Assembly (NCBI GenBank): GCA_016783715.1
Contig: JADHWA010000003.1
Coordinates: 1 to 49,211, forward strand
Direction of reading: 5' to 3'
Source: Candidatus Omnitrophota bacterium
Lineage (GTDB): Bacteria > Omnitrophota > Gorgyraeia > Gygaellales > Profunditerraquicolaceae
DNA length: 49,211 bases
Of this stretch, positions 5,936-49,211 are shown piece after piece. Both the position numbers and the translations under genes were made by a program. The notes under the pieces are model-generated. The model did not search any database, had not been told where the DNA came from, and saw only the letters and a list, made by a program, of their open reading frames with translations. Positions within the stretch are counted from its first letter, which is position 1; each line of letters begins with the position of its first letter.

Positions 5936-6025
5936 TTAATGAGCAGACGATTTATGGAGCACAACCTGCGACATAAATCGTAGCTGCATCCTTCGCTTAC
6001 GCTCCGTAAGCTCGGGCCTCATTTG
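5936..6025 (-). repeat. Junction element copy 1 (short; lacks the central arm), between rpmJ and rpsM
   Basis: Plus strand ttaatgag...ctcatttg; left arm identical to the start of copy 5. Confidence 0.85.
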
Positions 6026-6026
6026 A

Positions 6027-6140
6027 TTATCCTTGTCTTTGTTTATGTTTAGCATTAGAACAAATTACACGTACTACCCCTCTTCTTTTAATTACCTTGC
6101 ATTTATCGCACATCTTTCTAACCGACGCTTTTACCTTCAC
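6027..6140 (-). CDS. rpmJ: 50S ribosomal protein L36 (zinc-binding type); not in the ORF track
   Basis: Manual translation from [46 protein letters not shown] upstream. Confidence 0.97.
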
Positions 6141-6186
6141 CCCGCTCTTCCTCCTATCTTGTTCCCAACCCTCTGGAAGGGCTGGG

Positions 6187-6408
6187 TCATGATTTACCTC
6201 TAAAAGTAATCCTTCCCCTGTTCAAATCGTAGGGAGAAAGCTCTAATTTGACCTTGTCCCCCGGGAGAATCCGGATAAAATGCATCCGCATTTTCCCCGA
6301 AACATGGGCCAGGACTATATGGTCATTCTCTAACTTTACCCGAAACATCGCATTAGGCAATGCTTCAACTACGGTACCTTCTGTCTCAATTAACTCTTCT
6401 TTTGACAT
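6187..6408 (-). CDS. infA: Translation initiation factor IF-1
   Basis: MSKEELIE...LPNAMFRV...[14 protein letters not shown]; start moved to the ATG at 6408. Confidence 0.97.
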
Positions 6409-6421
6409 TAGAGCTCTTTCT

Positions 6422-6648
6422 TTAATGAGCGCTTGACTTACGATCCGCCGTAGGCGCAAGAGTAAGTCAATGCGCGAATTAACCCCCCACCACTTTTTGA
6501 TCAAGCTTTACAAAATAATATCTAACTATTATTGAATAATTCTAGCTTAAATATTACCAACCCCTCCACTATACAAAAAGTGGTGGGGGGTCAAATTCGG
6601 ACATATAAGTTACGTCGCTATCGCTTCCGTAACTTATGTCCTCATTTG
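6422..6648 (-). repeat. Junction element copy 2 (type A centre), between map and infA
   Basis: ttaatga|gcgc..gcgc|gaatt..ccccccaccacttttt..aaaaagtggtgggggg..ttc|ggac..gtcc|tcatt; contains the map stop codon. Confidence 0.93.
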
Positions 6649-7391
6649 ACCTTAGTTAAAATCTCGGGCCCTTGTTCGGTTATGGCAACCGTATGCTCAA
6701 AATGCGCTGAAGGAAGCTTATCTCTAGCGATCGCTGTCCAGCCATTCTCCTGAATCTGGCATTCCCATGTGCCCATATTCACCATCGGCTCAATCGCAAA
6801 AACCATCCCCTTTTTTATTAAGGGCCCCTGGTTTTTAGTGCCGAAATTAGGAATCTCAGGCTCTTCATGCAAACTGCGCCCGATCCCATGGCCAACGAAC
6901 TGTCTGACTACCGAGAAACCGTTACTCTCAACATAGTTCCCAATGGCATAGGAGATATCAAATAAGCAATTCTCTGCACGGGCCTGCCTGATCCCCTCAG
7001 AGAGGGCGTTCTTGGTCACCTCAACAAGCTTCTTAACCGGACTACTTACAGCACCGACCGGCACCGTGATCGCTGCGTCCGAAAAATACCCGTTGTAATT
7101 TACCCCGAGATCCAAGCTGACAATGTCGCCATCCTTGATAACTCTGGGGCCGGGTATCCCATGGACGACCTCTTCGTTAACCGAAACACAGACACTAGCC
7201 GGAAATCCCCTATACCCTTTAAATGCCGGTATAACCTTCTGACGCCAAAGAAGATCCTCTGTCAGATTATCAATCTCTTGTGTGGTTATCCCCGGCACAA
7301 GATTCTGCCGTAGCTGCCTTAAAATAGCCGCCAAGATTCTACCGGCCTCTCTTAATGCCTTTAGATCTTCCTCGGTCTTTAAGGGTATCAT
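6642..7391 (-). CDS. map: Methionine aminopeptidase type I
   Basis: SVNEEVVHGIP, GHGIG..LHEEP, AIEPM, AHFEHT. Confidence 0.97.
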   Translation of the reverse strand: MIPLKTEEDLKALREAGRILAAILRQLRQNLVPGITTQEIDNLTEDLLWRQKVIPAFKGYRGFPASVCVSVNEEVVHGIPGPRVIKDGDIVSLDLGVNYNGYFSDAAITVPVGAVSSPVKKLVEVTKNALSEGIRQARAENCLFDISYAIGNYVESNGFSVVRQFVGHGIGRSLHEEPEIPNFGTKNQGPLIKKGMVFAIEPMVNMGTWECQIQENGWTAIARDKLPSAHFEHTVAITEQGPEILTKVK

Positions 7392-7392
7392 T

Positions 7393-8037
7393 CTATTTTT
7401 TTAACAAAAGAACAATCTCTTCGAGGACAGGCTCTGCGTCCCTGTCAGCATCGATTCTTTTTAAAATTCCTTGTGCGTCATAGTAGCGGATCAGCGGCGA
7501 GCTGTCATCCTTGTAAACATCCAGGCGCTTGCTTATAGTCTGGGGATTATCGTCGCTTCTCTGATAAAGACTGCCTCCGCAGTAATCGCAGATCATCTCT
7601 TGTTTAGGCGGCATATTCTTAGCATGGAAATTCCCCTGGCATTGACTGCAAACCAGGCGTCCGCTGAGCCTCTGGATTATGATCCCCTCGCTGGTATCCA
7701 GGTAGATTACATAATTAATTTTGAGTGAGTGTTCCTGCAATAGTTTATCCAGGCTCTCGGCCTGCTTTATCGTCCGCGGAAAACCATCAAGTATAAAACC
7801 GCTCTTGGCATCATCTTGAGCGATTCGCTCTGCAATCATCTTGATCACCAACTCATCCGGCACAAGCGCGCCTTTATCCATATAGCCTTTAGCCTGTTGA
7901 CCTAATTCGCTCCCCAAAGAAACGTTCTCGCGCAGCAGGTCGCCGGTAGAGATATGAAGCTGGCCGGTTCTCTTAGCTAATTTCTTTGACTGCGTACCTT
8001 TTCCCGCACCCGGAGGGCCTAACAATATAACTCTCAC
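7393..8037 (-). CDS. adk: Adenylate kinase
   Basis: GPPGAGKGTQ, LDGFPRT, Cys-containing lid. Confidence 0.97.
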   Translation of the reverse strand: MRVILLGPPGAGKGTQSKKLAKRTGQLHISTGDLLRENVSLGSELGQQAKGYMDKGALVPDELVIKMIAERIAQDDAKSGFILDGFPRTIKQAESLDKLLQEHSLKINYVIYLDTSEGIIIQRLSGRLVCSQCQGNFHAKNMPPKQEMICDYCGGSLYQRSDDNPQTISKRLDVYKDDSSPLIRYYDAQGILKRIDADRDAEPVLEEIVLLLKK

Positions 8038-8040
8038 GCC

Positions 8041-9411
8041 TTATCTTCTCCCCTTAATCTTTCCGGTTTTAACAAAACCTTCGTAGTGGTGCATTAAAAG
8101 ATGTGATTCTATCTGTTTCACCGTATCAAGCATTACCCCGACGATAATCAGGATTCCCGTACCACCAAAGAATGAAGCCACCAGATACGGAACCTTTAAC
8201 CAGGCCATAATAAAGTCAGGAAATATAGCGATAAATGCGATGAACATGGCACCGGCCAAGGTTATCCGCGTCATTACATAGTCTAGGAACTCCGAGGTGT
8301 TATTTCCCGGCCGCACCCCCGGAATAAATCCGCCGTACTTCTTCATATTCTCCGAAAGGTCTACCGGATTAAAGACAATCGCGGTATAGAAGTAACAGAA
8401 GAAGATGATCAATAGTGCATAGACCAGCGTATATAAGAGATGTCCTCTCACCAGGCTCTGCGATAGCCGCTGAAAAGCAGGATTCGGAATAAATGATGCC
8501 AGGGTCGCCGGAAATAGGATTATCGACTGCGCAAAGATGATCGCGATGACTCCTGACTGATCCACCTTTAACGGGATATAGGTACTCTGGCCGCCAAAGA
8601 TTCTCCTGCCGACTATCCTGCGCGCATACTGAACAGGGATTCTTCTTTGCCCCTGTGTAATCAGGATAACCGCAAAGACTACACCAACCAATAATCCAGC
8701 CATAATCAACAAGGTGATCGGCTGTATCTGGCGTCTGGCAGGATTAAACGGTGAAATCAGAATAATCAGCTGGCTGAATGCTGCCGGAATGCGCGAAATA
8801 ATACCGGCGGTGATTACCAGCGATATACCGTTTCCAATACCCCTCTCCTGTATCTGCTCCCCCAGCCACATGATGAAAATCGTACCGGTAGTAAGGGTGA
8901 GTACGGTTAAGATCCTGAAACCCCACCCCGGACTCATAACTATCTGCAACCCCTCAAACCTGCTGGGATCCTCAAGCCAAAGAGCAATAAAAAAAGACTG
9001 GATAATCGACAGCACTACCGTACCGTAGCGCGTATACTGATTTATCTTCTGATGCCCAACTTTTCCTTCCTTGGATAGCTTCTCCAGGGCCGGGATCACC
9101 GCAGTCAATAGCTGCATGATGATCGAGGCGGAGATATAGGGCATAATCCCCAGGGCGAAGATAGTTAATCTCTCTAATGCGCCTCCGGAGAACATGTTTA
9201 CTATCCCAAAGAGCGCCCCAGCCTGCGTCTGGGAGACCCGGCTAAAAAACTCAGCCAGTGCCGCTCCGTTAATGCCGGGAGTCGGGATATAACAGCCAAT
9301 ACGATAAATTATCAATAACCCTGCGGTAATCAACAGACGCCGCTTAAGGTCAGGTATCTTAAAGGAATTAACTAACGGTGAAAAATTTAAAATCTCAGCT
9401 AGTGACCGCAT
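8041..9411 (-). CDS. secY: Preprotein translocase subunit SecY
   Basis: ALGIMPYISASII, GIGNGISL, IPGVRPG. Confidence 0.98.
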   Translation of the reverse strand: MRSLAEILNFSPLVNSFKIPDLKRRLLITAGLLIIYRIGCYIPTPGINGAALAEFFSRVSQTQAGALFGIVNMFSGGALERLTIFALGIMPYISASIIMQLLTAVIPALEKLSKEGKVGHQKINQYTRYGTVVLSIIQSFFIALWLEDPSRFEGLQIVMSPGWGFRILTVLTLTTGTIFIMWLGEQIQERGIGNGISLVITAGIISRIPAAFSQLIILISPFNPARRQIQPITLLIMAGLLVGVVFAVILITQGQRRIPVQYARRIVGRRIFGGQSTYIPLKVDQSGVIAIIFAQSIILFPATLASFIPNPAFQRLSQSLVRGHLLYTLVYALLIIFFCYFYTAIVFNPVDLSENMKKYGGFIPGVRPGNNTSEFLDYVMTRITLAGAMFIAFIAIFPDFIMAWLKVPYLVASFFGGTGILIIVGVMLDTVKQIESHLLMHHYEGFVKTGKIKGRR

Positions 9412-9850
9412 CTTTTATGTTGACTATCTTTCCGCCTGCTCCCTCTAACTTTTTCACCGCTGCTTTAGAGAAGGCATGGGCTTGCACGGTTAGGGGGGAT
9501 TTAACCTCGCCCTCTCCCAGAATCTTTACCGGCCTGGTTTTATCCTTTATTAACCCCTTGGTTTCCAGCAGATCGGGGTTTATACTCTCCTGTTTTACCC
9601 GGACTAAATCCTTTAAGTTGACAATCTGATATTTGTCCCTTACCCTGCCGGAGAAGCCGCGCTTTGGTATCCTGCGAATCAAAGGACTGGTTCCCCCTTC
9701 AAAACCAAGATAGAAACCATGACCACTGCGTGAGGTCTGCCCCTTGCTTCCGCGCGTAGATGTTCCTCCATGGCCGGACCCGGAACCTCGACCCAAAATT
9801 CTCTTTCGCTTATGCGCGCCTCGGGGGATAACCAGATTATGCAGCCCCAT
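9395..9850 (-). CDS. rplO: 50S ribosomal protein L15 (frame stays open upstream to 9958)
   Basis: GRGSGSGHGGTSTRGSKGQ, FEGG..PL.RRIPKRGF; start position uncertain. Confidence 0.93.
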   Translation of the reverse strand: MGLHNLVIPRGAHKRKRILGRGSGSGHGGTSTRGSKGQTSRSGHGFYLGFEGGTSPLIRRIPKRGFSGRVRDKYQIVNLKDLVRVKQESINPDLLETKGLIKDKTRPVKILGEGEVKSPLTVQAHAFSKAAVKKLEGAGGKIVNIKDAVTS

Positions 9851-18955: not shown

Positions 18956-19169
18956 TTAATGAGCAGACGATTTATGGAGCGCATCCTGCGACATAAATCG
19001 TAGCTGTATCCTTTTTCCTTATCTGTCAGCGTCTGCGAATTAACCCCGCACCTTTTATTTATTCATAAATTTAGGTATTTTTTGAATACCTAAAAAGGTG
19101 CGGGGTAAGTTCGGACTTTATAAGTTATGTTTCCGCCTACGGCGGATCCATAACTTATGTCCTCACTTA
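18956..19169 (-). repeat. Junction element copy 6 (type C centre), between tuf and rpsJ
   Basis: ttaatga|gcagac..gtctgc|gaattaaccccgcacctttt..aaaaggtgcggggtaagttc|ggac..gtcc|tcactta. Confidence 0.94.
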
Positions 19170-20372
19170 GGCAATTATCTCTATAACTACACCTGCTCCT
19201 ACCGTATGGCCGCCTTCGCGGATGGCGAAACGTGATTCTTTCTCCATAGCGATAGGAATGATCAACTCTACATCCAGGAGCACGTTGTCTCCGGGCATTA
19301 CCATCTCTACACCCTGCGGGAGAGAAGTTGCGCTTCCGGTAACATCTGTAGTCCTGAAGTAAAATTGAGGTCTATAGCCTTTAAAGAACGGAGTATGTCT
19401 TCCGCCTTCTTCCTTATTCAAGATATACACCTGAGCCTTGAATTTTGTATGCGGCGTAATCGATTTAGGCGCTGCTGCAACCATACCACGCTCAATCGAA
19501 TTCTTGTCTACTCCTCGTAAAAGCAACCCAACGTTATCACCTGCCTGACCCTCATCAAGGATCTTGCGGAACATCTCGATTCCGGTAACAACGGTTGAAT
19601 GCGTCTCAGGCCTTAAACCCACTAGCTCTATGGTGTCGTTTAGTTTTACTTTACCACGCTCGATTCTTCCTGTTCCTACCGTACCTCGTCCTTCGATGCT
19701 GAAGACATCTTCTACCGCCATCAAGAAGGGCTTATCCAGGTCTCTGGTAGGCAAAGGAATAAACTCATCGACTGCCTTCATTAACTCAAGGATACACTTG
19801 GCATCTTCACTTTTAGCATCAGCTGTTGTCATCGCTTTAGATGCGCTACCTCTGATGATCGGAGTCTTATCTCCCGGATAGCCATATTTGGTCAACAGAT
19901 CCCTGGTCTCAAGTTCCACCAGATCCAGGAGTTCCTTATCCTCCACTAAATCACATTTGTTCATAAACACGACCATCGCCGGAACGTTAACCTGCCTGGC
20001 TAACAAAATATGCTCTCTTGTCTGAGGCATCGGACCGTCGGCCGCAGATACTACAAGAATCGCACCATCCATCTGTGCGGCACCGGTAATCATATTCTTG
20101 ATATAATCCGCGTGTCCCGGACAGTCAATATGTGCATAATGACGGTTATCTGTTTCGTATTCTACGTGCGCCACCTGAATTGTCAATATCTTGGACGCAT
20201 CTCTTACTGCACCACCTTTAGCAATTTCAGTATATGACTTAGCAGTCGCCTTGCCCAGTTTACTCAACACGTTTAGGATCGCGGCAGTCAATGTAGTCTT
20301 TCCGTGATCGATATGCCCGATGGTACCTATATTTACGTGCGGTTTACTCCTGACAAATTTCTCTTTAGCCAT
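19167..20372 (-). CDS. tuf: Elongation factor Tu
   Basis: [27 protein letters not shown] before the ATG at 20372. Confidence 0.99.
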
Positions 20373-22989: not shown

Positions 22990-22990
22990 A

Positions 22991-23233
22991 TTAAATGAGC
23001 ACATAACTTACGAACACGTAGTGCGAGTAAGTTATTGTGCGAGTTTAACCCCCCACCACTTTTTGATAAAGTTTTATAAAATTATATCCTGTACTACCGC
23101 TCACTTCACAGCTAAATTTTACCGCCCCTCCACTATACAAAAAGTGGTGGGGGGTGAGTTCGGACAAATAAGTTATGTCGCTTCTATGATCTGAATTTAA
23201 AATATGCTGCTCCATAACTTATGTCCTCACTTA
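22991..23233 (-). repeat. Junction element copy 7 (type A centre), between rpsL and rpsG
   Basis: ttaaatga|gcac..gtgc|gagttt..ttc|ggac..gtcc|tcactta. Confidence 0.94.
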
Positions 23234-23602
23234 TTTTGGCCTCTTGGCTCCGTATTTTGAACGGGATCTCCTGCGGTTACTTACTCCGGAGGTATCCAGG
23301 GTACCTCTTACGATATGGTATCTTACCCCGGGAAGATCCTTTACGCGTCCGCCCCTGACTAAAACTATCGAGTGCTCCTGCAAATTATGCCCTTCTCCGG
23401 GAATATAGGCGGTTACTTCGATCCCTGTGGTTAACCTGACTCTGGCAATCTTACGAAGCGCGGAATTCGGCTTCTTAGGAGTCATGGTGCGTACCTGCAA
23501 ACATACACCGCGCCTCTGAGGACACCCCTTTAATGCAGGCGACTTACTTTTCTTCTTCTTTGAAACCCTTCCCAACCTGATTAATTGGACAATTGTCGGC
23601 AT
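23231..23602 (-). CDS. rpsL: 30S ribosomal protein S12
   Basis: [21 protein letters not shown]. Confidence 0.99.
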
Positions 23603-26600: not shown

Positions 26601-27657
26601 GTTTTAGCTCCGGCCCGACTACGATTACAGAGCGGCCAGAGTAGTCAACGCGTTTTCCTAGGAGATTCTGACGGAACCTTCCCTGCTTCCCCTTAAGCAT
26701 ATCTGAGAGAGACTTCAAGGGACGGTTGTTGGCGCCCAGCACCGGGCGACCATGCCTTCCGTTATCCAAGAGCGCATCCACAGCTTCCTGAAGCATGCGC
26801 TTTTCATTGCGGATGATGATCTCCGGGGCGTTGAGCTCAATTAACTTCTTTAATCGATTATTACGGTTAATTACCCGGCGGTATAAGTCATTGAGGTCCG
26901 AAGTAGCAAATCTTCCACCGTCTAAAGGAACCAGAGGCCTTAAATCCGGAGGGATCACCGGCAGGATCTCTAAGATCATCCAGTCCGGCTTATTATCTGA
27001 TTTTTTGAAATCCTCTATCAACTTTAAGGATTTTAGAATCTTGCGGTTATTTGCTGTCTCCTTTGTTTTGTCAAGGTCCTTGCGTAACTTACGGCAATAG
27101 GTATCAACGTCAAGTTCCTTTAGGAGATCCTGGACTGCCCCTGCTCCGATCTTTGCCTTAAAGCCGCTGCCGTACTTCTCAATGGCTTCCTGATATTTAT
27201 CCTCCGTCAGGAGTTCTTTTTTCTTTAAAGGAGTAGTGCCGGGATCCAGGACTACATATTCTTCATAATAGATAACCTTCTCGAGGTTCCTTAAGCCGAT
27301 ATCCAATAAAGCTGCCAGGCGCGAAGGCACGGCTTTAAAAAACCAGATATGAGTGACGGGTGCGGCTAACTCAATATGCCCCATACGCTCACGCCTGACG
27401 CATGAACGGTCGATATGGACACCACAGCGGTCACAGGTTATACCTTTGAATTTTATCCCCTTATACTTGCCGCAATTACACTCCCAGTCGCGGACCGGAC
27501 CGAAGATCTTCTCGCAAAACAGGCCGTCTTTCTCGGGCTTGAGTGTGCGGTAATTGATCGTCTCGGCTTTCTTTACTTCGCCTTTAGACCAGGACTTGAT
27601 CACCTGCGCAGAGGCAATCTTTATGGAGATACTGTCAAAACTAGTGGTCTCTTCCAT
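23602..27657 (-). CDS. rpoC: RNA polymerase subunit beta'
   Basis: NADFDGD, zinc-finger cysteines, [14 protein letters not shown]; start moved to the ATG at 27657. Confidence 0.99.
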
Positions 27658-27659
27658 AT

Positions 27660-27899
27660 TTAATGAGCGCATAACTTACGATCCGCCGTAGGCGCAAGAG
27701 TAAGTTATTGCGCGAATTTAACCCCCCACCACTTTTTGATAAAGTTTTATAAAATTATATCCTGTACTACCACTCACTTCACAGCTAAATTTTACCGCCC
27801 CTCCACTATACAAAAAGTGGTGGGGGGTGAGTTCGACCAGATAAGTTATGTCGTTTCTATCATTCTTGAATACAGCTCCATAACTTATGGTCTCACTCA
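27660..27899 (-). repeat. Junction element copy 8 (type A centre), between rpoB and rpoC
   Basis: ttaatga|gcgc..gcgc|gaattt..ttc|gacc..ggtc|tcactca. Confidence 0.94.
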
Positions 27900-30800
27900 T
27901 TTTGTCTTCTCCGTTTTAATATCCAGACACAATCCCTGCAACTCTTTCAGTAATACGTTAAAGGACTCCGGTGTACCGTGAACCAGACGCTGCTCTCCTT
28001 TTACTATCGCCTCATAGATCCTGGTTCTCCCTGAGACATCGTCACTCTTTACGGTCAGCATCTCTTGTAAGGTAAAGGCAGCCCCATATGCCTCCAGGGC
28101 CCAAACCTCCATCTCCCCTAATCTCTGTCCGCCGAACTGAGCTTTGCCGCCTAATGGCTGCTGAGTGACCAACGAATATGGCCCGATAGAGCGGGCATGG
28201 ATCTTATCATCAACCAGATGAATCAGCTTCATTATATAGATATAGCCTATAGTAACCTCCTGATCAAAAGGTTCTCCGGTGTATCCGTCGTAAAGGCGGA
28301 TTTTACCGCTGGTAGGCAAATTCGCTTTCTTAAGCATCTCTTTGATCTCCGACTCCTTGGCGCCGTCAAAAACGGGTGAGTCAAATTTCAGCCCCAGAAT
28401 TTTACCTGCCCAGCCAAGGTGTGTCTCTAAAATCTGCCCCACATTCATACGCGAGGGAACGCCTAATGGATTCAATATAACCTCGACCGGAGTTCCGTCA
28501 GGCGTAAAGGGCATATCCTCCTGAGGAATGATTTTGGCCACCACACCTTTATTACCGTGCCTACCTGCCAGTTTATCACCCTCGGATACTTTGCGCTTGG
28601 TAGCGATATAAACTACCACCCTCTTTAAGACTCCGGGAGGCAATTCATCGCCCCTGCGAACTTTATCAACCTCCTGCTGCTCCTCTGCCATTAATTCCTG
28701 GAGCTGCTCGTCAAAAGAAGATGCCAGAATCTTGGCCTCTTCGTTATCACTGAAATCCATCTTCTGGATTTTCTTTTTATCTATACCTGAGATCTGGCTT
28801 AAGCGGTTTACTTTTTCTGTCTCAAGAAACTCTACCTCCTGCTTATAGTAGGCCTTAATCTCTCTTATTTTTGCCAGCTCCTTTGATTTCTCCTCTTTGG
28901 TTTTTCTCCCTCTATCCTTACGGGAGAAAACGTGCACCTCTATAACCACCCCTTCGACTCCCGGGGGGGCGGTCAGGGAAGTATCACGGACATCCCCGGC
29001 TTTCTCACCGAATATCGCACGCAACAATCTCTCCTCCGGAGATAATTCAGACTCAGTTTTCGGGGTAACCTTACCTACCATAATATCACCCGGCTCAACC
29101 TTTGCACCCATACGGATAATCCCGGTCTCATCGAGATTGCGCAATGCTTCCTCGCTGACGTTGGGGATATCACGGGTGATATCCTCATTACCCAGGCGGG
29201 TCTCTGTAGCTTCAATATCAAACTCCTCTACGTGTATAGAGGTAAAGGTATCTTCCTTTACCAGCTTATCGCTTAGGATGATCGCATCTTCAAAGTTATA
29301 CCCCCTCCAGGACATAAAGGCACATAAAACATTCTTGCCTAAAGCGAGTTCCCCATTCCTTGTAGCAGTTCCGTCGGCAATAACCTCGCCTTCGGCCACC
29401 CGCTGGCCGATTTTGACGATCGGCCGCTGATTCAGGCAGGTATCTGCGTTTGTGCGCTGGAATTTCTTTAAATGATATATCTTTTTTCCGATGGCGATAG
29501 TGGAGACGTCCAGGTTAGTCACCTTGCCTGAGCCTTCGGCTAACACAACACTACCGGAGTCTGCGGCAACCTTAGCCTCCATCGCCGTACCCACAATCGG
29601 AGCCTCGGTAATCATCAATGGGACTGCCTGCCTCTGCATATTTGACCCCATTAAGGCACGGTTGGCATCATCATGCTCTAAGAACGGAATCAGAGAGGCG
29701 GCCACAGAAACCAACTGCTTCGGAGAAACATCCATATATTGGACCTGCTTGGGCGGAACCTTCGGCAGGAAATCCCCCCGATGTCGGCAGGAAATCTCCT
29801 TCTCCGCAAAATAGCCTTCGTTATCTAAAGGAATGTTCGCCTGGGCAATGACCTTATCTTCTTCTATATCTGCAGTTAAATATTCGATCTTTCGTGTTAC
29901 TCGCCCTTCTTCAACCTTACGATAAGGCGTCTCTATCAGCCCAAGCGGATTTACGCGCGCATAAGTGCTTAAAGATGCAATTAACCCGATATTCGGGCCT
30001 TCAGGGGTTTCAATCGGACAGACGCGGCCGTAATGAGAAGGATGGATATCTCTCACCTCGAACCCTGCTCGCTCCCGCGATAGGCCTCCCGGCCCTAATG
30101 CACTCAAGCGTCGCTTATGAGTCATCTCTGCCAGTGGATTGACCTGGTCCATAAATTGAGATAACTGGCTGCGGGCAAAGAAATCCCGTATCTGATTAGA
30201 TAAAAGTTTCGAATTAATCAAATAATGGATATTGAGCGTGTCTAAATCACCCAGGATGCCCAGTCTTTCACGGATAGAGCGCTCAACCCGGCTTAATCCG
30301 ATCCTAACCTGATTCTGGACCAGTTCTCCTACCGTCTTCACACGACGGTTACCCAGATGATCGATATCATCGATCTTTCCTTCTCCGCTTTTGAGTTTTA
30401 TCAGATACTCCATTACCTTTATTACGGTGGCCGAATCCAATATCCTCTTCTCTAAGGAGACTTCCATCCCCAGCTTGCGATTAAGGATAAATCTACCGAC
30501 CTTCTCTAAATCATACCTGGCCGGATCAAAGAACAATCTATAAAATAAGCCTTCTGCTGCTTCCTTGGTTACCGGTTCTACCGGACGCATCTTACGGTAA
30601 AAATCTAAATAGGCCTCTTCTTTACTTTTTGTGGGATCTTTCCTGAGTGTATTCTCGATCTCGGGATATTCTGCGCCGAATGCTGTGATGATATCCTGGT
30701 CACTGGAAAACCCCAAAATTCTCAATATCTGAGTGGCAGGGAAGTTTCTTCGCCTATCGACATAAGCCAGGATGGTCTCTGTAAGGTCATACTTAAATTC

Positions 30801-33105: not shown

Positions 33106-33622
33106 CTGTCTTATCCGCTGCCTTCTCTGCTGGTTTGGCTGCAGGTTCTGCCTGCGCCTCTTCTTCGGGTTTTGCGGTTATATGGGCATCTGAGAGCTTC
33201 TCTACCACCTCTATACCCATGCTTCTGGCGGTCCCCTCGATTGTCTTGATCGCCTGTTGAATATCTGTAGTATTTAGGTCCTTCATCTTCTGCTTGGCGA
33301 TATCCTCTACCTGCTTACGCTCGACCGCACCTATGATTTCTTTGCCGGCGATACCTGAGGCCTTAGCCAGGTTTGCTGCACGTTTGAGCAATACCGAAGA
33401 TGGCGGGCTCTTAACTATAAAGGTAAAGGATCTGTCTTCAAATACGGTAATTACTGCCGGCATGATCAATCCTTCTTTGCCCTTGGTCTGCTCATTGAAT
33501 TGCTTACAAAACTGCATGATATTGACACCATGCTGACCTAATGCCGGGCCTACCGGAGGCGCCGGATTTGCCTGTCCGGCCGGACAATACAATTTTATTT
33601 GTGCTGTAATCTTCTTAGCCAT
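33092..33622 (-). CDS. rplK: 50S ribosomal protein L11 with C-terminal extension
   Basis: [20 protein letters not shown]; start moved to the ATG at 33622. Confidence 0.98.
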
Positions 33623-33623
33623 A

Positions 33624-33853
33624 TTAAATGAGCCCACAACTTACGGAACGACAGTAAACGTAAGTTGTCTGGGCGAATTTAACCCCCCACCACTTTTCTA
33701 TAAAGCTTTTTAATTTTATTCTCCGATTTTGCCAAATGCTTCACGATTAATTTTTACCACCCATCCACGATACAAAAAGTGGTGGGGGGTAAGTTCGGTC
33801 ATATAACTTAGCTTCTCCGCCTGCGGCGGATCGCTAAGTTATGACCTCACTTA
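33624..33853 (-). repeat. Junction element copy 9 (type A centre), between nusG and rplK
   Basis: ttaaatga|gccca..tgggc|gaattt..ttc|ggtc..gacc|tcactta. Confidence 0.94.
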
Positions 33854-34378
33854 TATCTTCTCTACTTGCCAGTATTCTAATTCTACGGGAGTTGACCTGC
33901 CGAATATAGAAACGCTGACCTTGAGTTTTCCCCTTTCGGGATGTATCTGCTCTATGGTGCCATTAAAGTTTACAAATGGACCCTCGTTTACCCGGACCTG
34001 TTCCCCTTCTTCAAAGATGGTCTTCGGACTGGGCTTGGCTTCGGTCTCCTTGGTTCTCTTTAAGATGCTATCGACTTCCGCCTGCGGCAGAGGCATCGGC
34101 TTCTTTCCTAAGCCGATAAATCCTGTGATTCCCGGAGTTGTCTTAATCAAAAGATATGCTCTTTCGTCAAGATCCATCTCCACAATAAGATAACCGGGAA
34201 AAAATTTCCGCGCAGAGATCTTCTTCTTACCTGAGCGGATTTCGGAAACCTGCTCGGTAGGGATAATTATCTGAGTAATTGCCTCCTGCATCCCCTGGGT
34301 TGAGATTCTATTCTCCAACAGGGTCTTGACCTTATCTTCTGCTCCGGTTTGCGTATGAACAACGTACCACTTCTTCAT
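33851..34378 (-). CDS. nusG: Transcription termination/antitermination factor NusG
   Basis: WYVVHT, FPGY, IFGRSTPVEL. Confidence 0.98.
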   Translation of the reverse strand: MKKWYVVHTQTGAEDKVKTLLENRISTQGMQEAITQIIIPTEQVSEIRSGKKKISARKFFPGYLIVEMDLDERAYLLIKTTPGITGFIGLGKKPMPLPQAEVDSILKRTKETEAKPSPKTIFEEGEQVRVNEGPFVNFNGTIEQIHPERGKLKVSVSIFGRSTPVELEYWQVEKI

Positions 34379-34591: not shown

Positions 34592-35029
34592 CCGTAACCA
34601 ACAGGAGCGGCAGGGCTGCGAACCTGTCGTTCGCTTTCGCTCACTCCTCATAGGGAAAACCGTTTGGTTTTCCCTCCATGACGCTCTCCGCCTTCGGCGG
34701 ATCGCTGTCACCCTTTCCTCCGCAAATTATCAAATATTCTTAAGGGGAAAACAATCTTTTCCCCTTAATAATCCCCTTTTTAGGTTCTCGCCGTAACCAA
34801 CAGGAGCGGCAGGGCTCGAACCTGTCGTGCCCCTTATTCGGCGGGGTCACTCCTCATAGGGAAAACCCGTTTGGTTTTCCCTTATGACGCCCCTCATCTT
34901 TTACGCTGGGCTGTCACCCTTTCCTTCGCATCTTTTCAATTTTCCTTAAGGGGAAAACAATCTTTTCCCCTTAAGAACCCCTTTCGAGGTTCTCCCCGTA
35001 ACCAACAGGAGCGGCAGGGCTCGAACCTG
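34592..35029 (-). repeat. Tandem ~200-bp repeat; each unit ends in a copy of the tRNA-Trp 3' end
   Basis: ccgtaaccaacaggagcggcagggct(g)cgaacctg at 34592, 34791 and 34996; the units share internal hairpins. Confidence 0.9.
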
Positions 35030-35076
35030 CAGTCACGGTTTTGGAGACCGTTGGTTTGCCATTAACCGACGCTCCT
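35006..35076 (-). tRNA. tRNA-Trp (CCA); 3' CCA not encoded
   Basis: AGGAGCG acceptor stem, anticodon arm ACGGT-CTCCAAA-ACCGT, GGTTCGAG T-loop. Confidence 0.95.
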
Positions 35077-35080
35077 ATTT

Positions 35081-35269
35081 TTATCGAGCAGATAACTTAC
35101 GGAGCGATGCGTCGTAAGTTATAACTGCTTCATATCTTATTAGCAGTGTCTGCGAGCTAACCCCGCACCCAGTCTAGTATCTACTACTACTTGTTTGGGT
35201 GCGGGGTAAATTCTGACAGAGACTTATGTTCTCCGTCCTCGGCGGATCCATAAGTCTCGTCATCATTTA
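35081..35269 (-). repeat. Junction element copy 10 (type C centre), between rpmG and tRNA-Trp
   Basis: ttatcga|gcaga..tctgc|gagctaaccccgcaccc..gggtgcggggtaaattc|tgac..gtca|tcattta. Confidence 0.88.
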
Positions 35270-35412
35270 ATTTCTTTATGCGCAGAATGCTTGCGGCAGA
35301 ACCTACAATATTTGGAGAGTTCCAGTCTGTCCTGATGCAATCGCTTATTTTTGGTTGTAGTATAATTCCTGTTTTTACAAACCGTACATTCTAACGTAAT
35401 TAATTCCCGCAT
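35263..35412 (-). CDS. rpmG: 50S ribosomal protein L33 (zinc-binding type); not in the ORF track
   Basis: Manual translation: [49 protein letters not shown]. Confidence 0.96.
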
Positions 35413-35457
35413 AACAGTTTTACCGTTTAAATTTACTGCCCCTGTCTAAAAAAAATA

Positions 35458-35530
35458 AGCTGGAGACGGGGATCGAACCCGTGACCCCGTCCTTACCAAG
35501 GACGTGCTCTACCAACTGAGCTACTCCAGC
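35458..35530 (-). tRNA. tRNA-Thr (GGT); 3' CCA not encoded
   Basis: GCTGGAG acceptor stem, TAGCTCAGTTGGTAGAGC D-arm, GGT anticodon, GGTTCGAT T-loop. Confidence 0.96.
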
Positions 35531-43114: not shown

Positions 43115-43125
43115 CTTTCTCTCCT

Positions 43126-43265
43126 TTAAATGAGCCTCGCCTTATGCGTGGGGCTAATCCTTCGATTCACTTGGCTCGCTCAGGATGGTGAGCGAGGGCT
43201 GTTACGTCTGTCCGAATCGAACCATTTATCCCGAGTGCCGCCATATTGGCCGGACCAGGGATCTT
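43126..43265 (-). repeat. Junction element copy 11 (partial or divergent) joined to other palindromes, between rpsP and yajC
   Basis: ttaaatga|gcctcgc..gcgtggggc|taat left end, then ttcgattc..gaatcgaa and ctcgctca..tgagcgag stems. Confidence 0.55.
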
Positions 43266-43273
43266 AATTAGTC

Positions 43274-43519: not shown

Positions 43520-43533
43520 TTCTTGTTCCTCCT

Positions 43534-43761
43534 TTAATGAGCGCATATTTTACGGAAGCTCCTTTAGGAGCAACGTAAAATATAGCTTCTTTTGTTTACT
43601 AATCTATCAGCGTGCGCGAATTAAACCCCCCACCACTTTTTAATCTAACTACCTTGTGTATAAAACCACTTACCACTTTTTCTCCAAAAAGTGGTGGGGG
43701 GTCAAGTTCCCCCGCACCCAGTCTAGTATCTACGCTACTTGTTTGGGTGCGGGGTCACTTG
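43534..43761 (-). repeat. Junction element copy 12 (type A centre, type C module used as right arm), between trpE and rpsP
   Basis: ttaatga|gcgca..tgcgc|gaatt..gttc|ccccgcaccc..gggtgcgggg|tcacttg. Confidence 0.92.
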
Positions 43762-45255
43762 ACGTATAGCCTCAAACAAGGCCTTTGCCTTATTGACGGT
43801 TTCAAGATATTCCTTATTGGGCAGAGAATCCGCCACAATTCCCGCCCCTGCCTGAATATAGGCGACTCCCCCTTTGATCACTATCGTCCTTATGGTAATA
43901 CAGGTATCCATATTATGAGAGAAACTAAAATAACCCACACAGCCCGCATAGGGGCCACGGCGTAGATTCTCTAACTCATCTATGATCTCCATGGCGCGGA
44001 TCTTTGGACTGCCGCTGACTGTCCCTGCGGGAAAGCCAGCCCTCAAGACCTCATATACATCTAGATTATCCTGCAACCTCCCTCTGACCTCAGTCACCAG
44101 ATGCATTACATGGGAGTATTTTTCTACGTTCATAAACTCACTTAGCTTGACAGTCCCGGGCTTACAGACCCGGCCTAAATCATTCCTTCCGAGATCAACC
44201 AGCATTATGTGCTCTGCTCTCTCCTTTGAGTCATGCAAGAGCTCCTTCTCAAGCCGCAGATCCTCAGCCTGATTCCGCCCCCGTGGCCGCGTGCCGGCAA
44301 TCGGCCTGGTCCTAACCACCCCTTCCTCACAACGCACCAGCATCTCAGGAGATGACCCGACTAAATAAAAACCCTTAAACTTCAAGAAATACATATAGGG
44401 CGAGGGATTGAGGCTGCGCAGAGCCCGATAGATATCAAAAGGCTCTCCGGTAATTTTCGCAGAGAACCGCTGCGAGAGAACAGTCTGGATAATATCACCT
44501 TTTCTTATGAAAACCTTTGCCTTCTTAATAATCTCCTGAAATTCACTCCTTTTAAAGTTAGAGTTGATTCTTATTTTATTCGATTTGCCGCTTTTTTGCT
44601 TAACAAGGGTAATCTCTCCTTTAAGCTGAGCCTGGATATCCTTGATCTTCCCAAGGGCCTGCCTATAAAGCCTGCGTTTGGACTTCTGTGATAGGGCCGC
44701 CTTCTTTGGCTCCGGGAGGATGACATTTGTGACGATCTTTATAGTATGATTTATATGATCAAAGACCAGAATAGTATCGGTAAGCATAAATACCGAATCA
44801 GGCAGCCTTAAATCATCCCGGTTTTTATCGGGGATATCTTCAAAGAACCTGATCAGGTCATAACCGGCAAAACCTACCAGGCCGCCGTAAAACCGAGGAA
44901 GCCCCTTTATCGGAACCGCCTTGAACCTCTGCATAATCTTTTTTATCTCCTGCAGCGGGTCGCTCTTGGTTATAAAACGGCGGACACTCTTCCTGCTAAA
45001 ATCCCTGATCTCGATATTTCTTGCCTTACTGCGTATGACCAACGAAGGATTAGCCCCCAGGAATGAAAATTTGGCGATATTCTCCTGGCCTTCAACCGAT
45101 TCTAAGAGAAAGGAGTACTCGCCTTTTTTGATCTTTAAAAACGCAGATACCGGTGTATCCAGGTCGGCATTGATCTGGCCGTAGACCGGAATCACATTCC
45201 CTTTTTTGGTAAGTTTTAAAAACTCTTCTTCTGATGGATAATAAGAATTTCTCAT
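43735..45255 (-). CDS. trpE: Anthranilate synthase component I
   Basis: FLLESVE, NPSPYM, PIAGTRPRG, EHIMLVDLGRND, PAGTVSGSPK. Confidence 0.95.
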   Translation of the reverse strand: MRNSYYPSEEEFLKLTKKGNVIPVYGQINADLDTPVSAFLKIKKGEYSFLLESVEGQENIAKFSFLGANPSLVIRSKARNIEIRDFSRKSVRRFITKSDPLQEIKKIMQRFKAVPIKGLPRFYGGLVGFAGYDLIRFFEDIPDKNRDDLRLPDSVFMLTDTILVFDHINHTIKIVTNVILPEPKKAALSQKSKRRLYRQALGKIKDIQAQLKGEITLVKQKSGKSNKIRINSNFKRSEFQEIIKKAKVFIRKGDIIQTVLSQRFSAKITGEPFDIYRALRSLNPSPYMYFLKFKGFYLVGSSPEMLVRCEEGVVRTRPIAGTRPRGRNQAEDLRLEKELLHDSKERAEHIMLVDLGRNDLGRVCKPGTVKLSEFMNVEKYSHVMHLVTEVRGRLQDNLDVYEVLRAGFPAGTVSGSPKIRAMEIIDELENLRRGPYAGCVGYFSFSHNMDTCITIRTIVIKGGVAYIQAGAGIVADSLPNKEYLETVNKAKALFEAIRQVTPHPNK

Positions 45256-45590: not shown

Positions 45591-46342
45591 AATCTAACCG
45601 GCACTCCTTTATCCTTTAGGTAATCCTTTACCTGTTTAACCGAAAGCTCCTGGTAGTGAAATACCGAAGCAGCCAGAGCTGCATCAGCGCCAGATCTAGC
45701 GAAGACCTCATAAAAATGCTCTAGCCTACCTGCTCCTCCGGAGGCAATCACCGGAATCCCTACAGCAGTACTGATTGTCTTTGTCAATTCAAGGTCATAA
45801 CCGTCTTTTGTGCCGTCATAATCCATGCTGGTCAAGAGGATCTCTCCGGCCCCTAATCCGGCAACCTGCTTCGACCATTCTACGGCATCCAGGTCCACCG
45901 GAGTCCTGCCGCCGTTAATATAAACTTTCCAGCCATCTGCCTCTTTTTTGACATCAATAGCAACCACGATACACTGGCTGCCGAACTTAAGGCTAGCCCT
46001 GCTTATAAGCTCAGGCAACTTCACTGCCGCAGTATTAATTGAAACTTTATCCGCTCCGGCATTTAAGAGATCCCTGATATCTGAGATATTTCTCACCCCG
46101 CCGCCTACGGTAAAAGGCATGTAGATATTCACCGCGATCGCCTCTACCAGACCTATCAGCGTAGATCTGTTTTCGTAGCTGGCGGTGATATCTAAAAATA
46201 CTAACTCGTCTGCCTTCTGCTGATCATAGATCCTGGCCACCTCTACCGGGTCGCCGGCATCACGCAGACCTAAAAACTTTACACCTTTTACCACCCGGCC
46301 CTCTTTAATGTCCAGGCAGGGGATTATACGCTTGGTAAGCAT
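45587..46342 (-). CDS. hisF: Imidazole glycerol phosphate synthase subunit HisF
   Basis: [21 protein letters not shown]. Confidence 0.97.
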
Positions 46343-46346
46343 GCTT

Positions 46347-46781
46347 TTACTTTACGGGCTTCTCTAAAAACACCTGAAGCAGTCCCCAGGTTTCTTTGCC
46401 AGCTTTCCCGTCAACCTTCAGATCATTAGCCTTCTGAAAGGCCCGGACAGCCTCTTTGGTTCTTTGGCCCATTTTACCGTCAATCTTCCCCGGGTCAAAG
46501 CCGGCACTACTTAAAGCCATCTGAATATCTTTTGTCGATGGCTTAGGACTCTCTAACTTCGGACTCTTCTTTGCTTGCTTCTGATTAAGTTCCCAGATTA
46601 CATCCTTTAGATCAGATATCTCATCATCTTTAAGCTCGACCTGCGATTCAAGGAGCGAAATCTGATCTCTTAGCCCCTGCACCTGTAAATCGTCACCTTT
46701 CTTAGTTGATGTGGCGCAGCCACCAAGAACAAAAACAAACCCGACTAACAACAATAGCACAAAAATTCTTTTTATATACAT
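46347..46781 (-). CDS. Lipoprotein with coiled coil and C-terminal peptidoglycan-binding domain
   Basis: Signal peptide with LGGC lipobox; IQ.AL..AG.DPGKIDG.MG..T..AV..FQ....L.VDG..G.ETW. Confidence 0.85.
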
Positions 46782-47521
46782 ACTCCCTCTCCTTTCTTAG
46801 TTCCGCCGATCTTCAGCGCTGCACTCAATGTAAACTTCCCTTCGTATAAGGCCTTGCCGACAATTACTCCGGTTAGACCCTCTTTCTCCAGAACCTTAAG
46901 CCGCCTTAGGTCCTGCAGGCAAGATACCCCCCCTGAGGCGATAACCTTCATGGTGCTTATCTTAAGCAGTTTTTTTAGCTCTCTTATGCTCGGGCCTTTT
47001 AAGGTTCCGTCTTTGGAGATATCCGTATAGATAACCTCTCTGAAACCGTTATTCTCCAATGAAGCAGCAAACTCCGAAGTCCTTATCCGCCGGCCGGAAC
47101 TCTTCCAGCCCTTGGTCATCAATATGTCATTCTTGACATCAATGCTGACAATGACCTTGCCTCTAAATTCTCTGGACACCTTCTCCAGAAACGCCTGATC
47201 CTGGATAGCCCTGGTGCCCAAGACTACCCGCCGCACTCCAAACCCTAGAACCTTTCTTATCATCCCAATACTTCTTAGGCCTCCGCCGAACTGTACCGGG
47301 ATATCAATATTTTGGGCAATCTGCTTTACTATCTTTAAGTTTTTTGGCACCCCTTGAATTGCCCCATTCAGGTCAACCAGGTGAATTAGCCCAGCGCCCT
47401 GGCTTACCCAATCCCTGGCAGTCTTTAGAGCATCCCGGGAGTAGACCCTCTGATCTCTCTCTCCCTGGACAAGCCGCACGACCAAGCCATCTCTTAAATC
47501 AATAGCAGGAATTATCAGCAT
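46772..47521 (-). CDS. hisA: ProFAR isomerase HisA
   Basis: IPAIDL..G..VRL.QG, HLVDL, TDIS.DGTL. Confidence 0.96.
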   Translation of the reverse strand: MLIIPAIDLRDGLVVRLVQGERDQRVYSRDALKTARDWVSQGAGLIHLVDLNGAIQGVPKNLKIVKQIAQNIDIPVQFGGGLRSIGMIRKVLGFGVRRVVLGTRAIQDQAFLEKVSREFRGKVIVSIDVKNDILMTKGWKSSGRRIRTSEFAASLENNGFREVIYTDISKDGTLKGPSIRELKKLLKISTMKVIASGGVSCLQDLRRLKVLEKEGLTGVIVGKALYEGKFTLSAALKIGGTKKGEGVCI

Positions 47522-48141
47522 AGCTCTACAAAGTTTTTTAAAATCGCCAGACCCTCTTCCTGGCTCTTCTCCGGATGGAACTGAACCCCATAGAGGTTAT
47601 CTTTGGAAACAACAGCAGCAAATTCAAAACCATATTCGCAGGTGGCCTCAATCGTCTTTTTATCCGCCGGAGCCACATAATAAGAGTGACAGAAATATAC
47701 ACAGGGATCAGCCGCCAGGCCTCTTAAAAGAGGGCAATCTGACTCCCGAGTTGAAGGCTTGGTGATTTTAAGTTGATTCCACCCTATGTGGGGGATTTTT
47801 TTAACCTGACGGGGATCAAAACGCCTAACCTCCCCTGCAAACAGGCCTAACCCCTTCTCCTGCCTGGCTTCCTGACTTCTCTCAAAGAGCAGCTGCATCC
47901 CCAGACAGATCCCCAAAAGGGTCCTTTTACTGTTTAGTTCCTGCTTCAGGAAAGTATCGAACCCCTTCTTCTTCAACTCCAAGATAGCATCATCAAAAGC
48001 GCCTACCCCGGGAAGGACTATCTTATCCCCATCTTTCAACTTTTTAGGGGAGGAAATTACAGAAGTCTCCTGGCCAAAAGACTCCAGGGCCTTCTGTACG
48101 CTGTGAATATTCCCCATTCCATAGTCAATAATCGCGATCAT
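47515..48141 (-). CDS. hisH: Imidazole glycerol phosphate synthase subunit HisH
   Basis: DYGMGN, PGVG, GICLGMQ, QFHPEKS. Confidence 0.97.
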   Translation of the reverse strand: MIAIIDYGMGNIHSVQKALESFGQETSVISSPKKLKDGDKIVLPGVGAFDDAILELKKKGFDTFLKQELNSKRTLLGICLGMQLLFERSQEARQEKGLGLFAGEVRRFDPRQVKKIPHIGWNQLKITKPSTRESDCPLLRGLAADPCVYFCHSYYVAPADKKTIEATCEYGFEFAAVVSKDNLYGVQFHPEKSQEEGLAILKNFVELC

Positions 48142-48142
48142 T

Positions 48143-48338
48143 TTAATGAGCAGACGACTTACGGAACGACAGTGACGTAAGTCGTAGGCCGTAAGGCCGT
48201 CTACGAATTAACCCCGCCCTTTTGGCAGGGTAGCTTATTTAAATTATATCCCCGCCAAAAGAGCGGGAAAAGTTCGGACATATAAGTTATGTCGTCAAAA
48301 TTATTAATATATTGTTCCATAACTTATGTCCTCACTTA
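48143..48338 (-). repeat. Junction element copy 13 (type D centre), between hisB and hisH
   Basis: ttaatga|gcagac..gtctac|gaattaaccccgcccttttggc..gccaaaagagcggg..ttc|ggac..gtcc|tcactta. Confidence 0.93.
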
Positions 48339-48947
48339 ATCAATCAAACCTTTTGTTGAAGGGATACCTTTACGGCGGGCATCTATCTGCGTGGCCTGGT
48401 CAAGAGCCTTGCCAAAAGCCTTAAATACAGGCTCAAGGTTTGTGTGCAGGTCAGTATTGGCGCCTGAGATTTTTATATTTAGGTTCATCCCTAATTTATT
48501 AGCAAAGGACTCAAAGAAATGGTTGGCATATTCCAGATTATATCCGAACTCATCTCTATCAATAACTGAACCAACCGGCCTTTCTATCTCTTTAAAGAAA
48601 GCTCTGCCGCTTAAGTCAAGAACGACATTAGCTACCACATCCTCCATAGGGAATGAAGCTGACCCGCTGCGCTTAATGCCTAATTTATCTGTTAAGGCAT
48701 CCTTGAATGCCTCCCCTAAGACAAGCCCGATATCTTCATTTGTATGATGCATATCGACCTTTGCAGTATCCCCCTTGGCCTTCAGCTCTAAATCAAACAA
48801 CCCGTGAAAAGCAAATAGCTCCAGCATATGGTTCAGGAGCCCGATCGGAGTATCTATCTTAGACTTACCTTCTCCGTCAACAGTTAACTTAACCGTTATA
48901 TTGGTTTCGGTAGTCTTACGGGATTTCGTAGCAACTCTCTTTTTCAT
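48336..48947 (-). CDS. hisB: Imidazoleglycerol-phosphate dehydratase
   Basis: R.T.ET, HML, D.HHT.ED, FKAFG.AL, PSTKG. Confidence 0.93.
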   Translation of the reverse strand: MKKRVATKSRKTTETNITVKLTVDGEGKSKIDTPIGLLNHMLELFAFHGLFDLELKAKGDTAKVDMHHTNEDIGLVLGEAFKDALTDKLGIKRSGSASFPMEDVVANVVLDLSGRAFFKEIERPVGSVIDRDEFGYNLEYANHFFESFANKLGMNLNIKISGANTDLHTNLEPVFKAFGKALDQATQIDARRKGIPSTKGLID

Positions 48948-48960
48948 AGTGATTACCCCT

Positions 48961-49211
48961 TTAATGAGCGCATAACTTAGCGAAGCTAAATTATAGCGTC
49001 TATGGTTTTACATGTCGATCAGCGTGCGCTAATTACACCCCCCACCACTTTTTAATAAAAGTCTAAAATAAAATTAACGGTATAACTAACCATTCTTTAC
49101 TTAAATCCCCCAACCCACTCTTTCTCTAAAAAGTGGTGGGGGGTAAATTCGGACACGGCTTTTTTGCCAATAGCTTACGTCATTTCATTCCGTAAACTAT
49201 GTCCTCATTTA
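48961..49211 (-). repeat. Junction element copy 14 (type A centre), upstream of hisB; ends at the window edge
   Basis: ttaatga|gcgca..tgcgc|taatt..ttc|ggac..gtcc|tcattta. Confidence 0.92.

Follow-up and report, generated by a model that had tools for sequence, protein, structure and literature searches.

Mosaic hairpin repeats at gene boundaries in Omnitrophota operons: probable small mobile DNA elements

Repetitive extragenic palindromic (REP) sequences, bacterial interspersed mosaic elements (BIMEs) and REP doublets forming hairpins (REPINs) are repeats of Proteobacteria which, according to the cited accounts, are mobilized by REP-associated tyrosine transposases (RAYTs; PMC3733652; PMC3116915; PMC3337134; PMC2817692). 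The REP unit itself is given as a palindrome that is 20–40 bp long and bears a tag, GTAG or CGTC, which is not base-paired (PMC3733652). Bacterial MITEs (transposable elements of the miniature inverted-repeat type) that are located inside operons include Correia, ERIC and Chunjie (PMC3184786; PMC10969869), and 21-bp inverted repeats together with 9-bp direct repeats are listed for Chunjie (PMC3184786). The present analysis concerns a family of palindromic repeats, roughly 200 bases in length, that occupy gene boundaries in contig JADHWA010000003.1 of the Candidatus Omnitrophota assembly GCA_016783715.1; the window, i.e., the whole stretch of DNA that was analyzed, comprises this entire contig of 49,211 nt. 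The assembly is a metagenome-assembled genome (MAG) of 45 contigs and 716,592 bases and is 65% complete. Two further systems offer points of comparison. IS200/IS605-derived palindrome-associated elements and other HUH-mobilized single-strand elements are characterized by hairpin ends, a strand-specific orientation, small or no target duplications and short conserved sequences where the hairpin begins, with cleavage and guide motifs at this position in the IS200/IS605 type. The attC sites of integrons are folded imperfect palindromes situated between co-oriented genes.

The copies are probably small mobile DNA repeats of a non-autonomous type, which form a family specific to this lineage and are REP/BIME/REPIN- and MITE-like in kind. 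The initial annotation had recognized neither of these classes in them; terminal inverted symmetry, mosaic modules, 73 dispersed loci and presence/absence differences between genomes point to exactly that kind. As in the described REP, BIME and REPIN sequences, palindromic units exist singly, as inverted pairs and as mosaics at high copy number, they are positioned between co-directional genes just downstream of coding regions, and they are non-autonomous and probably transcribed (PMC3733652; PMC3116915; PMC3337134; PMC2817692). Inverted pairs are represented by 5' and 3' modules arranged around a centre, an arrangement that parallels a REPIN, and mosaic clusters by the tandem units of one locus (L200, see below). 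The traits shared with the operon MITEs are a size of ~100–250 bp, terminal inverted symmetry, predicted folds of great stability, the occurrence of full as well as partial copies by the dozen, and insertion between the genes of an operon without breaking it (PMC3184786; PMC10969869). Inverted ends, small size, non-coding character, many dispersed copies and presence/absence differences are thus all found in this family.

Several differences from the published descriptions should be considered. In contrast to the 20–40 bp of REP, the unit measures ~70 nt with ~20 pairs and a 2x2 internal loop, and no conserved GTAG or CGTC column exists in 23 aligned modules. Unlike the REP, BIME and REPIN sequences of the cited accounts, one module sequence is kept across the phylum and the placement is exact from stop to start codon. 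The direct repeat at the sole clean insertion site is 3 nt long, as opposed to the 9 bp listed for Chunjie (PMC3184786). In further contrast to the operon MITEs as reported, no parent insertion sequence is known, the hairpins form interchangeable mosaics and all full copies are in gene orientation. A resemblance to IS200/IS605-type elements may also exist. It would comprise hairpin ends rather than long plain inverted repeats, a strand-specific orientation, small or no target duplication and short conserved motifs at the hairpin foot. Here, however, the ends are symmetric and neither TnpA (Y1) nor TnpB was found in the 65%-complete MAG, while the strand bias of the copies is confounded by a gene co-orientation of 95%. 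Literature searches yielded no description of the family; among the matches listed (15 of 1,782), no entry combined an Omnitrophota term with one for repeat elements. We regard it as new and as closest in kind to REPIN/BIME and the operon-dwelling MITEs; it departs from REP in unit size, tag and RAYT linkage, and it is set apart by phylum-wide module conservation, exact stop-to-start placement, uniform orientation and the presence of copies without a Shine-Dalgarno (SD) sequence before essential genes.

Copies, modules and distribution

A profile was built from 12 window copies and used for an nhmmer search of the MAG contigs. On the window contig, thirteen loci were recovered, whose E-values range between 2.8e-9 and 3.6e-51; every one of them is located on the minus strand, which is the gene-sense strand (Table 1). 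The repeat family proposed in the initial annotation is therefore real, as 13 of its 14 copies were found again at their coordinates and in a single orientation. The remaining one, a presumed partial copy at 43126, produced no match to the profile at E <= 1e-3 and is a degenerate remnant by eye. The two-fold symmetry ascribed to the scaffold was borne out by a regular expression matching both strands. No open reading frame (ORF) is conserved through the element (1 of 31 copies has one). A coupling mini-ORF was considered for the copy at 15543, where an SD-like GAGG and an ATG are followed by 58 open codons up to a TAA before rplV, and was rejected, as it occurs in only 1 of 31 copies. Across the MAG, the profile identified 73 non-redundant loci of 53–303 nt in 716,592 bases, and blastn yielded 69 regions. 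The window makes up 6.9% of the bases but contains 13 of the 73 loci, an enrichment of about three-fold (binomial p = 0.0013). As members of the family occur throughout the genome and the phylum, the operon density that had been called unusual is so in degree only.

In mRNA sense, the ends of the element read T-(A/C)-A-R-TGAGG at the 5' side and GCTCATT-N-AA at the 3' side, and two terminal hairpins enclose a C-rich/G-rich central hairpin. The 5' module consists of an outer helix, a 2x2 GA/GA internal loop and an inner stem of ~14–20 bp, while the 3' module is approximately its reverse complement and carries a TC/TC loop. Terminal inverted repeats are consequently present, the 5' T-(A/C)-A-R-TGAG matching the 3' CTCA-T-T-N-A-A. 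Alignment of 23 modules revealed the conserved flanks AAATTCG and CTCATT, and the module is conserved in sequence and not in structure alone. As read from the sequences, individual loci contain one to five hairpins, usually three, and a limited set of modules is reused in differing combinations among loci, some of them as tandem units. The mosaic copy at 43534, for example, has as its first hairpin the module that forms the central part of the copy at 35078. Modules are also able to amplify in tandem. At one locus of a complete relative genome (L200; G188:C1:542781-545852), three near-identical tandem units, each composed of a 5' module, a small hairpin and a linker, follow one stop codon.

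With one copy as the query, blastn gave module-length matches in 23 of 40 relatives. The phylum was searched with a covariance model of one ~73-nt 3' module, which matched 98 of 150 sampled Omnitrophota genomes, at full length with 65–78 bits, and 10 of 61 genomes in the phylum of an Auribacterota MAG. No match was obtained in 101 genomes of a control phylum or in three unrelated genomes. A genome reached via a locus labelled Planctomycetia (G192) has the same top place and score as the Omnitrophota genome G117, and the two are probably the same genome. Two complete genomes contain 58 (G188) and 15 (G182) module matches. At 91 ribosomal-operon loci, the strong matches are all on the gene strand and the occupied junctions vary between genomes; weaker reverse-strand matches, which represent 5' modules, are located 30–130 nt upstream of the strong ones. 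The nusG/rplK junction is occupied both in the window and in G188, a genome of another family of the same class, in which a two-hairpin copy is directly followed by the ATG (L225; G188:C1:715800-718900).

Close relatives allow a comparison of occupied and unoccupied junctions. The sequencing runs from other studies in which the region is represented are DNA, and none is RNA. The X7 and X8 contigs, which are DNA from a different study, are about 95.6% identical to the window (180 other letters in 4114 for record 20). Record 20 of X7 and record 27 of X8 join position 15524 to 15737 via 15 letters that correspond to 15525-15539. At S19/L22, both contig sets are thus without 15540-15736, and the window copy is bordered on either side by a direct repeat of 3 nt (15540-15542 and 15737-15739, reading ATT on the plus strand); in the X7/X8 genome, the S19 stop overlaps the L22 start (TAATG). 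At L5/S14, 17 other letters stand in place of 11968-12213, and in this allele L5 has a different short C-terminus that is closed by a TAA stop, while the motif GGAGGA precedes the start of S14. At tuf/S10, 16 other letters, including AAAGGA, replace 18956-19166. One clean insertion with a 3-nt direct repeat therefore stands beside two sites at which 16–17 nt of native spacer are replaced. Because contigs of such high identity are without copies at all three junctions, the element has, judging from these alignments, been gained or lost recently. It also appears to have rewritten the C-terminus of ribosomal protein L5, which ends in a different short tail because its frame runs 20 nt into the repeat (12189-12216); the resulting tail differs from that of the X7 allele.

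In more distant relatives, most S19/L22 and many S10/L3 junctions are short, as seen in the first 44 of 80 L2-centred loci, and the 12-copy profile matches only three of these 80 loci. The gene order of the S10 operon around the copies is that of genomes without copies. Metagenome contigs, in which the best L3 identity was 69%, provided no exact empty sites from those loci.

The search for a mobilizing enzyme was extended to relatives. Y1-like ORFs were found in 29 of 40 of them, i.e., in 18 of 23 with the repeat and in 11 of 17 without it. Among the 150 sampled genomes, 122 contain Y1_Tnp-like ORFs (160–350 aa, 50–70 bits), often several per genome. A RAYT/IS200 partner was rejected as a candidate, as there is no flanking association with modules across 12 Y1 loci and no clear co-occurrence. 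The same holds true for an autonomous copy: in G188, the sole two modules with a spacing of 1.5 kb enclose a tRNA, an ORF of secE size and nusG, and no transposase. A parent insertion sequence that shares the ends and encodes a transposase was not found in the 65%-complete MAG nor, in G188, in the one module pair examined.

Placement between stop and start codons

Each of the 32 near-full copies has the same orientation as the gene that follows it. An upstream ORF of 100 codons or more exists for 24 copies, and in 19 of these its stop is located within -7 to 0 of the TGA of the element, being either a TAA four bases before this TGA or the TGA itself. The 5' octamer T-A/C-A-R-T-G-A holds stop codons in two reading frames; in the copy at 18459, for example, it contains the TAA stop of S10. 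Two classes can be distinguished among 61 parsed 3' ends. In 33 of them, a GGAGG-like SD is found at a fixed three bases, with the start 10–19 nt on, while 18 show no SD and a start codon only 1–6 nt on, mostly 3–4. The latter class includes eight window copies, among them those before rpoC, rplV, rplC, rpsJ, rpsG, rplK and rpsN. Neither terminator-like sites (23 versus 18.7+-4.5) nor promoter-like sites (28 versus 30.0+-5.8) are in excess over shuffles, so that a terminator or promoter role was dismissed and transcriptional read-through across the copies is plausible. In the complete genomes G182 and G188, all 25 loci are in gene orientation and fit two replichores, and their architecture always runs from the stop codon and the 5' module to the 3' module and the start codon.

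A partial copy elsewhere in the MAG (C19:705-895) is ambiguous in strand (24.3 versus 22.3 bits), and its termini appear inverted relative to the genes. It spans exactly the interval from the TAA of a 239-codon ORF, putatively murI by its translation, to the ATG of an ORF that may be queD.

For mobile repeats of this kind, the following course of events can be envisaged. Copies would insert, or survive, only at cistron boundaries and be co-transcribed with the operon. The 5' octamer would usually supply or overlap the stop of the upstream gene, and the 3' end would come to lie at a fixed distance from an SD site or start codon; together, a stop-bearing 5' end and a start-positioned 3' end might let the operon tolerate the insert. 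The leading guess for the mover would be a strand-specific mechanism acting on single-stranded DNA hairpins.

A number of observations weigh against mobility as the whole explanation. Of the three junctions that could be compared, a clean insertion accompanied by a duplication is seen at only one, the other two having an SD-bearing native spacer replaced. No match to Y1_Tnp, TnpB-type PF07282, DDE_Tnp_1, DDE_Tnp_4 or DDE_3 was detected in the MAG; as the latter is 65% complete, this does not establish the absence of a transposase. The Y1 genes of relatives are not flanked by modules (12 loci, with one strong match 1.2 kb off), and twelve module-bearing genomes have no Y1 match, including G180, which is 96% complete and has 19 module matches; both points separate the family from the REPIN/RAYT pairs of the published accounts. 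A module that scores 65–78 bits throughout a phylum is unusual for selfish repeats, and such conservation suggests a conserved partner or function. The strict sense orientation and exact stop-to-start placement could likewise reflect function and not tolerance. Finally, orientation is inseparable from the direction of replication: of the 645 called genes, just 31 are located on the minority strand of their contig, and the G182/G188 loci fit two replichores, so that transcription and replication cannot be told apart as its cause.

A second explanation, which we consider unlikely, is that the copies are functional intercistronic RNA cassettes whose hairpin array insulates or processes cistrons and permits a start without an SD, with mobility being secondary. 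Such a start might be achieved by re-initiation across the compact fold or by cleavage at the base of the last hairpin, which would leave a near-leaderless mRNA. This explanation accommodates the 18 of 61 copies that place a start codon 1–6 nt past the last hairpin without an SD (rpoC and rplV included), the replacement of a spacer with an SD-like motif at L5/S14 and tuf/S10, the sense orientation of all 32 full copies, the phylum-wide conservation of the module and the lack of a terminator signal. The composition of the stems argues against it. Across 23 modules, pairing in the inner stem of the 3' module, which has 14 pairs, amounts to 97.2%, with two-sided changes at ten pairs; this stem is strictly Watson-Crick, with no G-U (one-sided changes) in 322 cells. 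Strict Watson-Crick stems lean towards a DNA element, because palindromic DNA gives stems free of G-U, whereas in an RNA helix these would be less expected. In 24 of 32 full copies, folding is indeed better for the sense strand than for the antisense strand, by 4.3 kcal/mol and with more G-U pairs. Random coding segments, however, show an even greater sense bias (-7.1 kcal/mol, 117 of 150), so that the additional stability can be ascribed to base composition, and it was dropped as evidence for selection on a sense-strand RNA. Moreover, the element is missing from these junctions in most relatives, and no coupling ORF is conserved.

Equally doubtful, in our estimation, is a combination of both explanations, in which the element is a portable intercistronic cassette that arrives by transposition, brings stop codons and has long been kept by the Omnitrophota, with one subfamily carrying an SD and the other replacing the native stop/SD spacer. 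If this were true, rpoC, rplV and rpsJ would be translated independently of an SD from an AUG 3–4 nt beyond a hairpin of ~20 bp, either via re-initiation across the folded array or after nuclease processing to a near-leaderless mRNA, and the phylum-wide conservation would reflect binding or cutting of the module by a conserved host protein. If essential genes are truly translated from the copies without an SD, a form of internal initiation that has received little study would become open to direct tests.

Omnitrophota are uncultured bacteria with small genomes, yet in the present genome repeats of ~200 nt are tolerated inside the ribosomal and RNA polymerase operons, at sites that include rpoB/rpoC and junctions with overlapping stop and start codons in close relatives. 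The family provides a convenient marker for variation between strains of this phylum and a natural test of the structured-RNA load that is allowed between coupled cistrons. It also poses a tractable question, i.e., which conserved factor keeps a 70-nt palindrome recognizable across the phylum while copies come and go.

Predicted fold of the copies

The initial annotation had proposed a conserved structured RNA or single-stranded DNA element that folds into a perfect four-way junction, with a closing stem and three arms. Conserved, structured repeats without a transposase are indeed present; the four-helix fold, with the junction as the selected feature, is in contrast very improbable. Both models were compared on 12 aligned window copies. 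In a model of three hairpins, each terminus pairs with its neighboring linker and lengthens the terminal hairpin, and 83.7% of cells are paired with a covariation of 0.170, values reached by none of 500 shuffles. The junction model requires terminus-terminus and linker-linker pairing and attains 74.1% and 0.035, values reached by 447 and 491 of 500 shuffles. Its variable positions are mostly unpaired and covary with the adjacent linker instead. Compensated pairs under the hairpin model are, for example, 41:114 (GC 7, AU 3) and 231:320 (UA 6, AU 3), and the outer pair 11:74 occurs as AU 9, UA 7 and CG 3 in 23 aligned 3' modules from the MAG and seven other genomes.

Pair counts in individual copies agree with this result. 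In the 15 of 32 full copies that were readable by a strict parser, the 17 with bulged stems having been dropped, the hairpin model averages 10.3 Watson-Crick pairs of 12 and the junction model 6.9, and the former is higher in 15 of 15. The RNAalifold consensus consists of three hairpins, and the copy at 33624 folds as three abutting hairpins both as RNA (z -8.2) and as DNA (z -8.3). The hairpins abut without unpaired bases, and 2x2 internal loops are located in the first (GA/GA) and the last (UC/UC). The bases TGA, GAA, TTC and TCA, previously described as nearly invariant junction bases, are better read as such internal loops (GA/GA, TC/TC) inside long palindromes. The junction model retains some support, since the termini are complementary (AATGA with TCATT) and the minimum-energy folds of 31 full copies contain the closing stem in 18 cases, a three-branch junction in at least nine and a gap-free junction in at least five, the last two counts being lower bounds as the loop walk halted at the first bulge. 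The copy at 6421 is one that closes as a three-branch junction in its minimum-energy fold. On balance, modeling favors copies that fold as three hairpins side by side, and the four-way junction would represent an accessible alternative rather than a supported structure.

The copies match no Rfam family. A scan of the window at gathering scores returned two tRNAs and no other family, and at E <= 1 only chance-level matches to miRNA hairpins were located inside copies (27–28 bits versus cut-offs of 85–90).

That the palindromes are sites of a site-specific recombinase, by analogy with integron attC, and no transposon at all would fit their position between co-oriented genes, their single orientation and a structure that is more conserved than the loop sequence, but is extremely improbable given that the copies are flanked by core genes of the ribosome and of RNA polymerase, which stand in their usual order and are not cassettes, that the S10 operon has the same gene order in copy-free genomes, and that the module is conserved in sequence and not in structure alone.

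Window features and genomic setting

The coordinates of all copies in the window are compiled in Table 1.

Table 1. Hairpin repeats in the window, with strand and flanking genes.
Element	Position	Strand	Location and remarks
Short two-hairpin copy, central hairpin absent	5936..6026	-	rpmJ (L36)/rpsM (S13); SD after 3' end; nhmmer 5936-5993, E 2.8e-9
Full three-hairpin copy	6421..6649	-	map/infA; nhmmer 6419-6649, 150.9 bits; Peptidase_M24 by Pfam
Full copy	11969..12216	-	rplE (L5)/rpsN (S14); nhmmer 11967-12216; S14 ATG 4 nt past end, no SD
Full copy	15543..15736	-	rpsS (S19)/rplV (L22); nhmmer 15541-15739
Full copy	18459..18657	-	rpsJ (S10)/rplC (L3); nhmmer 18457-18659; L3 ATG 4 nt past end
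Full copy	18956..19169	-	tuf/rpsJ (S10); nhmmer 18955-19170
Full copy	22991..23233	-	rpsL (S12)/rpsG (S7); nhmmer 22990-23235, 171.4 bits
Full copy	27660..27899	-	rpoB/rpoC; nhmmer 27657-27901; rpoC ATG 4 nt past end, no SD
Full copy	33624..33853	-	nusG/rplK (L11); nhmmer 33622-33855
Copy with diverged termini	35078..35300	-	between tRNA genes 35458-35530 and 35006-35076; nhmmer 35078-35271, 116.1 bits
Degenerate remnant	43126..43270	-	rpsP (S16)/yajC; by eye 3' terminus and following SD recognizable, nothing more
Mosaic copy	43534..43778	-	trpE-like gene/rpsP; nhmmer 43532-43778
Full copy	48143..48338	-	hisB/hisH-like gene; nhmmer 48141-48340; ATG 3 nt past end
Full copy	48961..49211	-	upstream of hisB; nhmmer 48959-49211

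The genuine genes of the window are all located on the minus strand. Pfam assigns them to the operons alpha, spc, S10 and str, to rpoBC, to the L11 cluster including nusG and, in some cases, to biosynthesis, and the genes flanking the copies encode S13, Met-aminopeptidase, L5, S14, S19, L22, S10, L3, EF-Tu, S12 and S7 as well as RpoB, RpoC, NusG, L11, S16, YajC and TrpE-like, HisB and HisH-like proteins. The L2 protein of the window shows an identity of at most 77% to Candidatus Omnitrophota MAGs. Between the two tRNA genes (window 35006-35530), the copy stops a few bases before the downstream tRNA, so that its neighbor is a processed RNA and not a start codon.

Crude gene calls with approximate start codons, one of them based on codon scores, gave a coding density of ~94% for the MAG and a gene co-orientation of ~95%. 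The latter is extreme, with 572 co-directional neighbor pairs versus 28 switches and with 31 of 645 genes on the strand that is in the minority within their contig. At 49211, the contig ends exactly where a copy has its 5' terminus, and in the likely source run (X2), short-read contigs break inside or at copies. The hairpin repeats probably help to fragment the assembly.

Outside the hairpin family, a stretch of 160 nt between rplP (L16) and the next small ORF (window 13913-14072) contains a short hairpin and a direct repeat, ATCTGTGTAATC occurring twice in sense. The X7 contigs carry 19 letters instead, and from this comparison the stretch looks like a second, unrelated insertion or deletion.

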